Of a stretch of DNA of 20,000 bases, positions 8,670 through 19,617 are shown one piece after another. Origin of the DNA: an uncultured virus (IMG/VR IMGVR_UViG_3300031851_000007) (Duplodnaviria > Heunggongvirae > Uroviricota > Caudoviricetes); the IMG/VR virus record IMGVR_UViG_3300031851_000007, positions 58,279 through 78,278 of that record. The stretch is one strand, 5' to 3'. Position 1 is the first letter of the stretch. Every line of letters starts with the position of its first letter. Both the position numbers and the translations under genes were made by a program. Under the pieces are notes generated by a model that was not told the DNA's origin, made no database searches, and saw only the letters and a list, made by a program, of their open reading frames with translations.

Positions 8670-9050
8670 TTAGTATCCTTCTGCTGAAATATTTTGCGGA
8701 TACTCATATCCTTCACTAATTCTTAATATAAGTTGACCATCTGCTGGATCAACGTAGTACAATATTGATCTACCATCCCATTTAATTTGAGGATATCTTA
8801 AATTTTCATAAAGAAAGTTATGATCTTCATCAATACCGTCTAAGAAATCAATACCTTCTTCAAAGTCTGGAAAGTTTCCATCTGCTGTTCCAAGATCGTT
8901 AACTGTAACTGTTTGTTCTTCGCCGCCTTGTAACTGATCGGATCTAACTAGAAATAGTTCTCCGTCATCGTTTCTGCGCATACCGTAGAAATAACGTTTA
9001 ATAATTCCGTTTACTACGTCTTGTGGATTGTTACCTACATAATATGACAT
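8670..9050 (-). CDS. Hypothetical phage protein, 126 aa (probably virion-associated)
   Basis: ORF track. Tightly packed in the structural operon (10-11 nt gaps), with an upstream AAGGA SD. Confidence 0.8.
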   Translation of the reverse strand: MSYYVGNNPQDVVNGIIKRYFYGMRRNDDGELFLVRSDQLQGGEEQTVTVNDLGTADGNFPDFEEGIDFLDGIDEDHNFLYENLRYPQIKWDGRSILYYVDPADGQLILRISEGYEYPQNISAEGY

Positions 9051-9060
9051 ATCTATTTCC

Positions 9061-9390
9061 TTATGTAATCTCTACGTAACTTAATACGCAATCAATTGAA
9101 TCGTTTACACTTGCTTGTACAAGTAATTTGTTTGACGGTGCAATAATTAATTTTTCACCTGTTGATACTACTCGCAAACTTGTGTTTGCTGGCAACAATG
9201 TTTCTTTTAAGTAGAAACCAGTAACACTAGTATCATCCTGTATTAATACACTACAGTAAACAAAACTAGTAGTTAAATTTGTTAAACTTAGTCCAATCAC
9301 TGTTGCCCTGTTTGCTGGCGTTGTCTGTAGAATTTCTACAGGCTTTGTGCCAATTTCTTTTATTACGTTATTTCTAAAAAATGTTGCCAT
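9061..9390 (-). CDS. Small beta-rich protein, 109 aa (paralog of 17635..18012); possible fibre adaptor or chaperone
   Basis: ORF track. LLPANTSL...EKLIIAPSNKLLV...SYVEIT aligns by eye with LQLPAGETF...EKIILESGDKVVI...SYLEV. Confidence 0.8.
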   Translation of the reverse strand: MATFFRNNVIKEIGTKPVEILQTTPANRATVIGLSLTNLTTSFVYCSVLIQDDTSVTGFYLKETLLPANTSLRVVSTGEKLIIAPSNKLLVQASVNDSIDCVLSYVEIT

Positions 9391-9394
9391 TGTG

Positions 9395-12300
9395 TTATCC
9401 TAAGTATAAAACTGTTTCTACTGCTAAGAAACCTGCGTCAATTGTTGTAATAGCACCTGTTTGTCCAGCAACTGAACCCCATTGCAATCCGTCGTATGCT
9501 TCAACTCGTCCATCTGACGTATTAAATCTTAACATACCAACTTCTGTGAAAGCTGGGGCCGGTCTATTAAGGTTTGTACCTACCGGAATAACAACACCGT
9601 TGGTGCCATCAATTTTTACGTACCCGTTACCTGTGCTAACAAATTGTGTTATACTATCAGTAACTGTATTAGTAATTTTGTTATCATCAAATGCAAAATT
9701 CTCTAATAATACGCTGCCTGTTCCTTGTGCCTTTAGTTCTAAATCTGTATCTGTTGTAACTGTAGTTATCACATTAGTGTCGATTTCGATGTCATCTACG
9801 GTTAATCTTGGAACTGCTAATCTTGTTCCATTAAGGTCTGCTACAGTAGTGCCTGCAATATCAAATCTTATAATATTGTCATTTGCACCTTGTGTTTGTT
9901 CAGCTCTAATTTGTGTATCACCATCAAGATCAATAACACCATTTAGTTGTATCCAGTCACTTCCATCGTAACCTTCAAATCTGTTCAACTGTGTATTAAA
10001 TCTTACAATGCCTGGTTCAACTGCTGGTCTTTCTGCTGTAGTACCTGTTGGAAGTTTTATAGCACCAGTAGTTTGTATTTTTACATATCCGCTTGCTGCT
10101 GCTAAATTTATATCTGATGTACTTGAAACTGTAATGTCGTCTACAGTCAAGTTATCAATTACTATACTACCTGTACCACTTGATCTTAATTCTAAGTTAG
10201 CGTTTGTTGCTGTAGTAGTAATATAATTTTGTGTGATTCTTATATCGTCTATTTCTGCTTGATTAGCCCAAATATTTTTCCAAATTCTACTAGGAGTACC
10301 TAAGCTATATGTACTGTTTTGTGCAGGAACAATATCACTGTTTATGCCAGCTATAAATTCTATTGCGTCAGATGCTTCATCACCAATTGTAATGTCGCCG
10401 CCAATTGTAACATTACCAGTAACATCTAAGTTTCCTGTAATATTAACATTATTGTTTAAATTAATTTGATCACTTGCAGCAGTTACGTTAACGTCTCCTG
10501 AAAGGCTTTCTAATGTATTACCACTAAGTCTTAAATTACCTGTGTCAATTCTATTGCCGTCAACAAATGTAGTGTTGCCGCCATCTGTGAAAGTAAGTCC
10601 TTGTCCAGCAGATACATTAAAGTTAGAACTTGTAAATGTTATTACGCCAGTTTCTTGGTTAACGTAGAACAAGTCGCCTACTCTAAAGTCGCCTTTATGG
10701 TCAACTGAGTTGTATCTTACTTTTGCATTGTTTAATTCAACTACTTCGTTTGCTTGTATAACTGTTGTTGCATCGTTAGTAACTTCTTTGCCGTTACCAA
10801 TGTATGCTAAGTTTTGTCCAATTGCATATACAATAACCCCTGGACCGTCGCCCCAAATACCATAGTTACCATATACACTTGCACTACCAATCATTCTAAC
10901 TTCTGCGCCGAAATCTGTGTAATCTGCAAGTGTAATTCTAGTTGCTGTTGCACCGCCACTAAATCTAATATCTTGTGCGTAAATTACTTCATCTTCAAAA
11001 GTTGTAGACTCATCAACTCCGTTAAATCTAAGTAATAATACTGTAGTAGGAGTTGCATATAAATTTACTGTAGGTGCAGTAAAGTTTGCAGTATATATTG
11101 CTGTACCTTTTATAACTCTAACATCATCAAAATGACCTGTTGTTGCATCAGATGCATCATGTGCTGCACCAATTGTTAATGGTTTAGCAGTTCCGTAATC
11201 ATTATTATCAGTGTAAGTTGTACCTACTTGTGTTCCGTCTACAAATAATTTTGTATCAGTGCCGTTACGTGTTAAAGCAATATGATGCCATGTTGTTGCT
11301 GATATTGCGCCTGCTGCTGTAATCTTATTTGCATTGTCAGTAAAGTAATAAAGAGATCCATTACTTGTTTTAAGCATTGGAGCAACGTCACTATCAAGTG
11401 CTGCTCTTAAATCTATTAATACATTGTTGGTTGCAGGTGTTGAAGGAAGGTAAATCCAAGTTTCAATTGTAAAGTCGCCAGTTCCAAAACCAAAATCATT
11501 TTGTGGCTGTATACTTGCATAATCACCAGTGCCGTCAACTTGTAAACTTGCTGTACCAAACTTTTTGATAGATGTGTCAAGTTGTGCGTCACCGTTTGCG
11601 GTAACTTGTTTTCCTGGGCGTTCTTCAGCTGTTTCAAATCCTGTAACTTTTCCACTTACATAAAATTTGTTATCTGCATCAACACTTTCGACTGTGCTTG
11701 TTGCTAATACTGTTACTCCGTCTGTATCATAATATGTTACAGTTTCGCCTTGTGTAATTGTTCCTGTTAAATCACTAACACGAAGTGCTGTTTTGCCAAC
11801 ACTTGCTTTTCCGTCTGTGCCATCAACACAGTATACGCCTCTATTAGCAAAATATGTAAAGCAGTTTAGCCATTCTATTCTAACACCATTTGTAAATGTA
11901 ACAGCATCAACTCCAGGAGTAATAAATGTTACAGCGTGAAATAAACATGCTGCTTCTTTACTTGCAGGCGTTGCTAAACTTCCGTCTAAGTATGCACCTT
12001 TACCTGCATCACCTGTATTAAATCCTCTTGGATCTTCCGCTGTAGTTGTTGTACCTGTTGTAATAACACTTACGTTTCTTATGTAAGGTGATCTGCTGTT
12101 TACTTGGAATGTTGAATTAAACTTAAATGCGTAACCTGTGTTGTTGCCGGCATCAAAATTAAATCCTGTAATTGTTAATTCTTCAACTGTAGTTTCACCA
12201 TTTAGAATAAACGCATCATTAGTTACTGTACCAGCAGTTGGTTGTATTGTAACACTTCTCAAACTATGTCCGTGTACATTTACACCTGTAGGTATTGTAA

Positions 12301-13126
12301 GTGGAAACACTTCTGTATAAACACCAGGCATAATATAAACAGTATCACCTGCTGTTGCTGTTGTTAATGCTTGTGCTACACTAGCATATGGTGCTTGTGG
12401 ATGATCACCTGAACTAGCATCATCACCATTTTCTGCAACAAAGATTGTATTGCCTGGGCGTAGATTTAAATCTATGCCGTCAACTATTAATCCAGTTGTA
12501 TCAATTGTTCCTGCAAAGAAATTTTGCACATAGACATCACCCCATTGCTTACCTCCTAGATCAGGATCACTACCTAAGCTGTATGTGTTATCTATGTCTG
12601 GTATAATATTACTGTTTACTTCAGCATTAAATGTAATGAAGTCTGTATCAGCATCACCAATAGTAATTTCGCCGTCTGCTGTAATATTTCCTGTTGCAAA
12701 TATGTTACCTGTTACGTTCATGTCAGAATGTACTTCGACACTACCAGTTCCGTTTGGTCTAAATTCTATATTTGCATTTGTATTGTCTGTACTAATAACA
12801 TTATTTTCTAAATTAATGTCATCAATTTCTAATCTGTTTTGATATACTACATTGTCGCCTGTACCGATTGTAAGTGTGCTATTTGTAGTAGATATTGTAT
12901 CACCAGAGAATTGAACGCCGCTTATATCGGCGAATGTTGTTGCTTCAACAGTGGGGGTGCGTACTATACCATTAACATCTAAATCGAATTGAGGATTTGT
13001 TTTGTTAATACCGATGCGGTTGTTATTCACATCTAGATAAAGTAAGTCAGTCTCAAAAGCTAAGTCTACTCCTTCACGAAGTAAGTTTTGCTTCAAGAGC
13101 GGACCGGATATGCGACCAACAGCCAT
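9395..13126 (-). CDS. Tail-fibre-like structural protein, 1243 aa, with a beta-helix region and an inserted LamG/concanavalin-A-like lectin domain
   Basis: ORF track. SD GAGGAG. LamG-type motifs: FGTGDFTIETWIY, WHHIALTR, LFVDG, LTIG, GHFDDVRV. Two PxGTxxxRP...RFNT...E(G/A)YDGxxW units. Confidence 0.85.
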   Translation of the reverse strand: MAVGRISGPLLKQNLLREGVDLAFETDLLYLDVNNNRIGINKTNPQFDLDVNGIVRTPTVEATTFADISGVQFSGDTISTTNSTLTIGTGDNVVYQNRLEIDDINLENNVISTDNTNANIEFRPNGTGSVEVHSDMNVTGNIFATGNITADGEITIGDADTDFITFNAEVNSNIIPDIDNTYSLGSDPDLGGKQWGDVYVQNFFAGTIDTTGLIVDGIDLNLRPGNTIFVAENGDDASSGDHPQAPYASVAQALTTATAGDTVYIMPGVYTEVFPLTIPTGVNVHGHSLRSVTIQPTAGTVTNDAFILNGETTVEELTITGFNFDAGNNTGYAFKFNSTFQVNSRSPYIRNVSVITTGTTTTAEDPRGFNTGDAGKGAYLDGSLATPASKEAACLFHAVTFITPGVDAVTFTNGVRIEWLNCFTYFANRGVYCVDGTDGKASVGKTALRVSDLTGTITQGETVTYYDTDGVTVLATSTVESVDADNKFYVSGKVTGFETAEERPGKQVTANGDAQLDTSIKKFGTASLQVDGTGDYASIQPQNDFGFGTGDFTIETWIYLPSTPATNNVLIDLRAALDSDVAPMLKTSNGSLYYFTDNANKITAAGAISATTWHHIALTRNGTDTKLFVDGTQVGTTYTDNNDYGTAKPLTIGAAHDASDATTGHFDDVRVIKGTAIYTANFTAPTVNLYATPTTVLLLRFNGVDESTTFEDEVIYAQDIRFSGGATATRITLADYTDFGAEVRMIGSASVYGNYGIWGDGPGVIVYAIGQNLAYIGNGKEVTNDATTVIQANEVVELNNAKVRYNSVDHKGDFRVGDLFYVNQETGVITFTSSNFNVSAGQGLTFTDGGNTTFVDGNRIDTGNLRLSGNTLESLSGDVNVTAASDQINLNNNVNITGNLDVTGNVTIGGDITIGDEASDAIEFIAGINSDIVPAQNSTYSLGTPSRIWKNIWANQAEIDDIRITQNYITTTATNANLELRSSGTGSIVIDNLTVDDITVSSTSDINLAAASGYVKIQTTGAIKLPTGTTAERPAVEPGIVRFNTQLNRFEGYDGSDWIQLNGVIDLDGDTQIRAEQTQGANDNIIRFDIAGTTVADLNGTRLAVPRLTVDDIEIDTNVITTVTTDTDLELKAQGTGSVLLENFAFDDNKITNTVTDSITQFVSTGNGYVKIDGTNGVVIPVGTNLNRPAPAFTEVGMLRFNTSDGRVEAYDGLQWGSVAGQTGAITTIDAGFLAVETVLYLG

Positions 13127-13129
13127 CTT

Positions 13130-13236
13130 TTCTCCTCAATACGGGGATCCTGTCCCTCTAGCCTAATTCTCACCCTTACGGTTCTTTGCTGGCTAACCAC
13201 AGTTTGTCCCTGCAAGTATTGGTCATACGTTGCATT
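13130..13236 (-). ncRNA. Candidate structured cis-regulatory 5' leader RNA of the 1243-aa gene
   Basis: Relatively GC-rich untranslated stretch between a GATAAATA box and the SD. Nested helices GGGA/UCCC, CUGU/ACAG and UAGCC/GGCUA, a CC-GUAA-GG tetraloop, and a 5' hairpin UGCAA-c-GUAU...AUAC-UUGCA. Confidence 0.55.
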
Positions 13237-13241
13237 AATAA

Positions 13242-13249
13242 TATTTATC
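13242..13249 (-). promoter_or_regulatory. Putative late promoter box GATAAATA
   Basis: Intergenic copy of the recurring motif, directly after a terminator-like hairpin. Confidence 0.7.
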
Positions 13250-13277
13250 AAAAATAAAGAAAAGGGCTACGTTAGCC
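13250..13277 (-). terminator. Possible weak intrinsic terminator overlapping the stop codon of the 1273-aa gene
   Basis: Minus strand reads GGCTA-ACG-TAGCC-CTTTTCTTTATTTTT. The stem is only 5 bp. Confidence 0.45.
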
Positions 13278-19609: not shown

Positions 19610-19617
19610 TATTTATC
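19610..19617 (-). promoter_or_regulatory. Putative late promoter box GATAAATA
   Basis: Fourth intergenic copy, just downstream of a terminator. Confidence 0.7.

Follow-up and report, generated by a model that had tools for sequence, protein, structure and literature searches.

The described leaders closest to the one reported here are those of E. coli rpsO and of the alpha operon. According to the portions of PMC3985624 and PMC3616713 on which we draw, the knots of these two mRNAs enclose the start and act by entrapment of the 30S subunit, with a protein holding the knot shut. For viruses, the relevant section of a 2010 review named the gene 32 pseudoknot as possibly the sole viral pseudoknot in translational autoregulation (PMC3014915). 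These three sources, together with excerpts of PMC7652899, PMC5737381 and PMC10690425, form the background literature of this study. Here we compare with them a leader encoded on the minus strand of a 20,000-nucleotide stretch of viral DNA (the window). Running from a late promoter at 13248 to codon 5 of the gene behind it (13113), it is, as judged from its homologues, a real, widely conserved and uncatalogued folded mRNA element.

The window belongs to a virus record of 78 kb from an uncultured aquatic jumbo phage, relatives of which reach 357 kb (estimated completeness 96-100%). Among cultured phages no protein relative was found, and DNA matches occurred at chance level only. The same record holds frames which, from their sequences, we take to encode tail sheath, tail tube, terminase, recombinase and ssDNA-binding proteins. 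In G000:C1:39539-47181 (+), about ten frames of 200-250 aa are presumably 2OG-Fe(II) oxygenases and one of 567 aa is presumably a tryptophan halogenase. The predicted target of the leader is a fibre- or baseplate-wedge-like virion gene of 1243 aa with a LamG domain (9395..13126, minus strand). Its product matches PHROG baseplate-wedge and virion families and the LamG domain, and the repeats at its N-terminus show weak similarity to trimeric fibres of known structure. In a structure model of residues 1-350, the N-terminus is of low confidence and the C-terminal part is beta-helix-like. The Atlas gave nothing informative on the N-terminal module of the fibre or on the 126-aa protein encoded further along, and a scan of 10 window proteins detected no RNA-binding family. 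Two small genes of 109 and 126 aa (8670..9390, minus strand) lie directly downstream on the same predicted late transcript and are candidate co-regulated genes or regulators. Since past the leader the next promoter motif in the window occurs only at 2865, and gene gaps are 4-11 nt, the leader probably heads a four-gene transcription unit.

The first-pass annotation of this DNA had drawn attention to the 145-nt gap ahead of the fibre gene, and the gap does stand out, as the other minus-strand gaps in the window measure 1-52 nt. Its coordinates took in neither the late promoter nor the coding-region pairing described below, and the inner pseudoknot was also missed. The T4-type late promoter ATAAATA is located at 13242..13248 (minus strand); the motif resembles the T4 late promoter TATAAATA and recurs before many minus-strand genes, and TAAATA is present in 262/265 leaders. 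The shortest leaders are nine viral ones of class D without the 5' hairpin (P0), which begin 5 nt after TAAATA. From this spacing we infer the 5' limit of the core and, for the window, a transcript start near 13236. Contigs assembled from RNA runs, two of which resemble one data set, cover both genes, with none crossing 13138-13254. Each of the two paralogues of the window, alternative fibres according to the first-pass annotation, has a separate late promoter, and a weak terminator-like hairpin with a U run lies over the stop of the upstream paralogue (13265..13277, minus strand), a feature that by eye, uncounted, is not evident in most homologues. Elsewhere in the window, a freshwater-2 RNA (RF02980) is found at 19595-19512 (minus strand) with 70.3 bits, above the gathering score, and with an ATAAATA promoter at 19616, which gives this phage another structured late leader. 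A manA-like RNA at 19876-19676 (minus strand) scores 43.3 bits, below the gathering score.

Protein-led searches and pattern scans yielded at least 344 distinct homologues of the fibre-gene leader. The first protein-led search returned 41 loci, and the leader is present in 37 of the 38 having complete upstream DNA. The sole exception, L038 (2965-3003), is an orthologue that lacks the whole leader, with the promoter 23 nt from the AUG and no clear Shine-Dalgarno (SD) sequence, and provides a natural deletion control. A second protein-led set comprised 74 distinct leaders, with the motif in 73 and one truncated; because its query was built from motif-bearing genes, this set is not independent as regards distribution. 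Among the 120 metagenome matches listed, the promoter is seen in 118, a visible GRISG start in 115 and at least one of both in all 120. The first 90 residues of the downstream proteins have a median identity of 60%. In five of five records the motif occurs once per record, on the last of two or three paralogues. These paralogues share an N-terminal module, the upstream ones are without the leader motif, and the body of the motif-bearing gene varies from 505 to 1828 aa. That leader and N-terminal module go together may simply reflect their being neighbours. In 3/5 records, the motif-bearing gene is directly followed by the genes of 109 and 126 aa.

A model scan found no second copy of the leader in this genome, the next score being 9.6 bits as against 81.7. 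The matches inspected in four bacterial bins sit before the same gene family. Two of the bins carry two copies of leader plus gene (G001, C57 and C77; G003, C300 and C532), probably phage contigs binned with cells. Of the checks suggested in the first-pass annotation, the alignment of leaders revealed conservation with compensatory changes across homologues, and the Rfam search returned no family: Rfam 15 gave no covariance-model match at the window leader (E<=5) nor at 20 homologous loci (E<=10), and no further match in the rest of the genome record. A literature search found no paper on the element. The motif may be listed in the alignment and position files that accompany PMC10690425 or in the supplementary material of PMC5737381; in the part of the PMC10690425 supplement covered, motif strings (three files) and contig ids (four files) gave no match.

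At the heart of the leader lies an H-type pseudoknot with stems of 3 and 7 bp, a GG loop and an A-rich loop, its strands being assigned by homologue comparison (all coordinates on the minus strand). UGU at 13201-13199 (stem 1, 5' strand, 13199..13201) pairs with GCA at 13189-13187 (3' strand, 13187..13189) inside the loop of the 7-bp stem 2, which is formed by UUAGCCA (13190..13196) and U(A bulge)GGCUAG (13158..13165). An invariant C (13202) stands just before the 5' strand of stem 1 and the invariant GG loop (13198-13197) just after it. The A-rich loop 3 (13166..13186) contains an optional inserted hairpin with a GUAA loop (13183-13172). Both the UAGCC/GGCUA stem and the GUAA hairpin had been drawn in the first-pass annotation and are supported by homologues, the hairpin as an optional element of the family; loop 3 is 8 nt long and has no hairpin in 61/175 cores. 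Six leaders (L165, L249, L291, L355, L452 and L486) carry a second hairpin in loop 3, which therefore tolerates two insertions.

The pairing of stem 1 was followed with a free-partner scan, in which a non-U was demanded at its first position and the pairing partner was left unconstrained. All 51 distinct variant cores before the gene turned out to be compensated (28 C-G and 23 A-U); two further real rows, outside the 51, are also A-U and the other rows are chance matches elsewhere. Across 175 distinct cores (drawn from 265 leaders, 2 unparsed), this variable pair is Watson-Crick in every one, with 126 U-A, 30 C-G and 19 A-U. Parsimony on a noisy protein tree gives 30 steps on each side and 30 joint steps. 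Inner-knot counts from a parse that itself demanded the pair would be circular and are left aside here. When 31 short class A cores are aligned without gaps, 100% of the cells of knot, stem and the hairpin P3 are paired and 7/14 pairs are compensatory, and the inner-knot result holds across classes (76 sequences). The unpaired positions are nearly invariant, namely C1, the GG loop, A17, and the G and AA of loop 3. Taken as comparative evidence, these observations leave hardly any doubt that the inner knot and P3 are real.

The hairpin at the 5' end of the leader, which the first-pass annotation had recognised, also has the support of the homologues. This element, P0 (13211..13234), is variable in sequence and carries the loop GACCA (13224-13220). 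Its median z against shuffles is -2.7 over 334 leaders, it is absent in 10/344, and GACC is unpaired in 233 of the 253 leaders that have it. A variable linker (13203..13210) follows, holding most of the non-conserved first AGGGACA copy. The hairpin P3 (13144..13156) is the local GGGA-CAGGA-UCCC hairpin proposed earlier, which the homologues sustain. Its sequence is replaceable, and hairpins of other sequence take its place in classes B, C and D: class A has C...GA loops, classes B and C have GNRA-plus-one loops and class D has longer stems. The position of P3 is narrowly set; it ends 17 nt before the AUG in the window and 16-18 nt before it in 227/265 leaders, a distance that corresponds to the edge of the 30S footprint. 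The SD begins 5-8 nt after P3 in 248/265 leaders and reads GAGGAG in the window (13132..13137), inside the loop of the probable outer knot. An upstream open reading frame in the leader was considered and rejected, as an early AUG is missing from 173/344 leaders and lengths are scattered.

The remaining pairings of the first-pass annotation fared differently. The sequence and coordinates quoted there, both copies of AGGGACA (13211-13205 and 13157-13151, the only two places in the 78-kb record) and the motifs CAAUAC and GUAUUG had all been read correctly. The long interrupted stem exists as the nested minimum-energy fold of the window (-28.4 kcal/mol, z -2.4, 0/200 shuffles as good), but large parts of it are not shared by the homologues. 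Its energy in this genome is 6 kcal/mol lower than that of the nested pairs of the conserved fold (family median about 4), in an energy model that leaves out knot and tertiary energy, and this advantage arises from the AGGGACA repeat of this genome. The CUGU/ACAG helix shows no compensatory change and 13 broken cells in 31 sequences. For the long-range GGGA/UCCC pairing, the linker complement is present in 8/129 leaders with UCCC and in 0/39 variant leaders. The first AGGGACA copy is found in 3/262 leaders and both halves of the CAAUAC-GUAUUG pairing in 5/262. The 5' region pairs no better with its own SD tail (-6.19 kcal/mol) than with the tails of others (-6.62 kcal/mol). The two mutually exclusive pairings proposed and the duplicated AGGGACA are private to this genome and never compensated, and the candidate for blocking the SD is a different pairing, that of the GACC loop with codons 3-5.

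The coding segment UUGGUC(G) at 13113..13119 (minus strand), in codons 3-5, is the probable partner of the P0 loop in this outer pseudoknot. UUGGUC, at +8 to +13, has its complement in the loop GACCA(A), and the pairing would enclose the SD and AUG. Coding GGUC is kept in 253/253 leaders with a GACC loop compared with 72/91 without GACC (Fisher value 2e-12, which ignores kinship); as background, 41% of the Gly codons in these genes are GGU and 64% of the Arg codons are CGN. The tree implies about 11 losses of GGUC, none of them in a leader with GACC. A GUCC loop occurs together with coding GGAC in two leaders, six combine a loop UUGGYY with GGCCAA over the start codon, where the old site reads GGA AGA, and four more pair near +1 to +8; with the variant loops GGCC, GACU and GAUC, G-U pairs are formed. 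Two groups (L221, L225, L238, L257, L177, L543 and L240, L534, L631) have an altered P0 loop that pairs over the start codon and not with codons 3-5. The next pair outward is Watson-Crick in 77% as compared with 61% when shuffled, and on the tree the flanking pair co-changes in 5/21, no more than control sites (0-9). About 59/344 leaders seem to be without an outer knot.

GGUC is also present in 39/49 leaders with a hairpin that lacks a partner loop and in 9/10 without P0, and the next Gly codon (window 13105-13103, minus strand) is GGU in 227/253 leaders as against the 41% background. Therefore, other constraints or ancestry contribute to GGUC. The excess of GGU at the second Gly codon possibly reflects an alternative register or another constraint. 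A pairing of the GACC loop with GGUY just after the inner stem was also tried and discarded; it shows no covariation by eye, and the coding partner fits better. Overall, the comparison makes it very probable that the GACC loop pairs with codons 3-5. With moderate confidence, the leader has the entrapment layout of rpsO and the alpha operon, that is, a coding-region pseudoknot with the SD and start codon in its loop.

As one pseudoknot would close over the ribosome-binding site, the leader would set the output of the fibre gene and its neighbours, and control of translation initiation is, on comparative grounds, its highly probable role. The control element put forward in the first-pass annotation survives in this respect, being a conserved, covarying, cis-acting leader tied to the gene with translational control as its likeliest role, but not in the mechanism proposed there. 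We suggest that the leader forms the 5' end of the late mRNA and acts as a translational operator. The 30S subunit would reach the SD and could not load the mRNA until the outer knot opens, the outer pairing covering bases that must enter the mRNA channel. A protein binding the inner knot and P3 would stabilise the closed state, so that less fibre protein is translated and, through coupling, less of the small proteins encoded downstream. Since rpsO and the alpha operon, in which a protein traps the 30S subunit, have this layout, we moderately favour, by analogy, a protein-stabilised operator of this kind. The likeliest binder would be an unassembled product of the unit, either the conserved N-terminal module of the fibre or the 109- or 126-aa protein, and the result would be feedback on virion stoichiometry. 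That the binder is encoded in this unit is put forward tentatively, and assembly feedback in the manner of ribosomal proteins, exerted by a virion protein on the mRNA that encodes it, would be unprecedented and is a somewhat unlikely outcome.

It is also conceivable, though rather unlikely, that the leader is a fixed tuner or protector without ligand, its 5' hairpin and knot stabilising the late mRNA of about 10 kb or serving as a landing site for ribosomes, and the outer knot setting a constant initiation rate. The structure does begin at the predicted 5' end, the sequence of P3 is freely replaced between classes, and both P0 and the outer knot can be lost, all of which would suit such a role. 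However, the near-invariant unpaired bases exceed what plain stability needs, although base triples could explain them, and the other late genes of this phage have short plain leaders.

Improbable, in our estimation, is a phage riboswitch class in which the inner knot senses a host metabolite, a signalling nucleotide or an ion and the outer knot is the expression platform. In its favour are the compactness of the pseudoknot, the invariant bases in its loops, the optional hairpins that it accommodates and its place directly 5' of an SD. At the loci retrieved, however, the leader stands before one virion gene family only, with no metabolic or transport genes, it matches no Rfam riboswitch, and no direct anti-SD was found, nor any conserved alternative pairing with the SD apart from the outer knot, which could serve as the switching pairing. 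If this reading were true, a jumbo phage would match its production of tail fibres to the condition of the infected cell.

Very improbable is a non-regulatory role, be it self-cleavage or pairing of the loop of one mRNA with the coding region of another, which would bring mRNAs together when the trimeric fibre is assembled. Covariation cannot tell intra- from intermolecular pairing and the product has trimeric-fibre repeats, but the leader matches no ribozyme family and its constant distance from the SD is more in keeping with initiation control. Scarcely to be expected is binding of host CsrA/RsmA to the CAGGA loop and the GGA of the SD, suggested by the CsrA/RsmA-type GGA loop of the first-pass annotation. 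That loop is indeed present in P3 of the window, where ACAGGAU comes close to the SELEX consensus RUACARGGAUGU, and in 171/195 class A leaders; it is not family-wide, being absent from 146/146 class B/C and 24/195 class A loops (171/344 leaders overall have it), the closing GU of the consensus is lacking, and no CsrA gene was found in five phage records by a search whose control was detected in only 3/14. The least credible reading of all is a two-state switch through the duplicated AGGGACA and CAAUAC/GUAUUG, which has the nested minimum-energy fold of this one sequence in its favour and against it the want of conservation and compensation, with the linker following P3 changes in 0/39.

The protein-stabilised operator thus remains our preferred reading of a doubly knotted, uncatalogued late leader whose structure is well supported by its homologues and whose function we infer as the most likely one. 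Next to gene 32, it would be a second and more elaborate knotted leader, present in hundreds of uncultured aquatic jumbo phages, and our literature search found no precedent for such control on a structural operon. Small and well defined, and with natural variants in which parts are lost or the register has shifted, it may serve as a probe of how giant phages balance their virion parts, and it offers a ready new RNA family and a marker for this phage group.

Among known systems, the freshwater-2 RNA (RF02980) is likewise a structured late leader, in the same window and with the same promoter motif, but belongs to a separate family that does not match the fibre-gene leader. With riboswitches the leader shares a conserved folded domain that lies 5' of a gene and contains unpaired bases that do not vary. 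The gene 32 leader of T4, T2 and RB69 is another pseudoknot-bearing phage leader; as far as the consulted section of PMC3014915 describes it, the present leader differs in having about 6 nt to the SD in place of a long A/U-rich tract, an extra outer knot, and a fibre/baseplate-like gene downstream instead of one for a ssDNA-binding protein. Unlike the rpsO and alpha-operon leaders, it does not precede a ribosomal-protein gene, and it matches neither RF00114 nor RF00140. In the excerpts of PMC3985624 and PMC3616713, the E. coli rpsO (S15) leader resembles it in that a 5' hairpin loop pairs with the coding start and the SD and AUG lie in a large loop; in the phage leader this loop also holds a separate H-type pseudoknot and a hairpin, the conserved double-hairpin state that sequesters the SD is absent, and the gene encodes a virion protein. 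The topology of the alpha-operon leader bound by S4 (RF00140) is different, as the inner knot of the phage leader is wholly 5' of the SD, and the two do not match in sequence. Yet, as portrayed in the same part of PMC3616713, that leader too is a double pseudoknot overlapping the first gene, with a variable, covarying 5' helix, and the phage leader could, like it, be bound by the product of a downstream gene.
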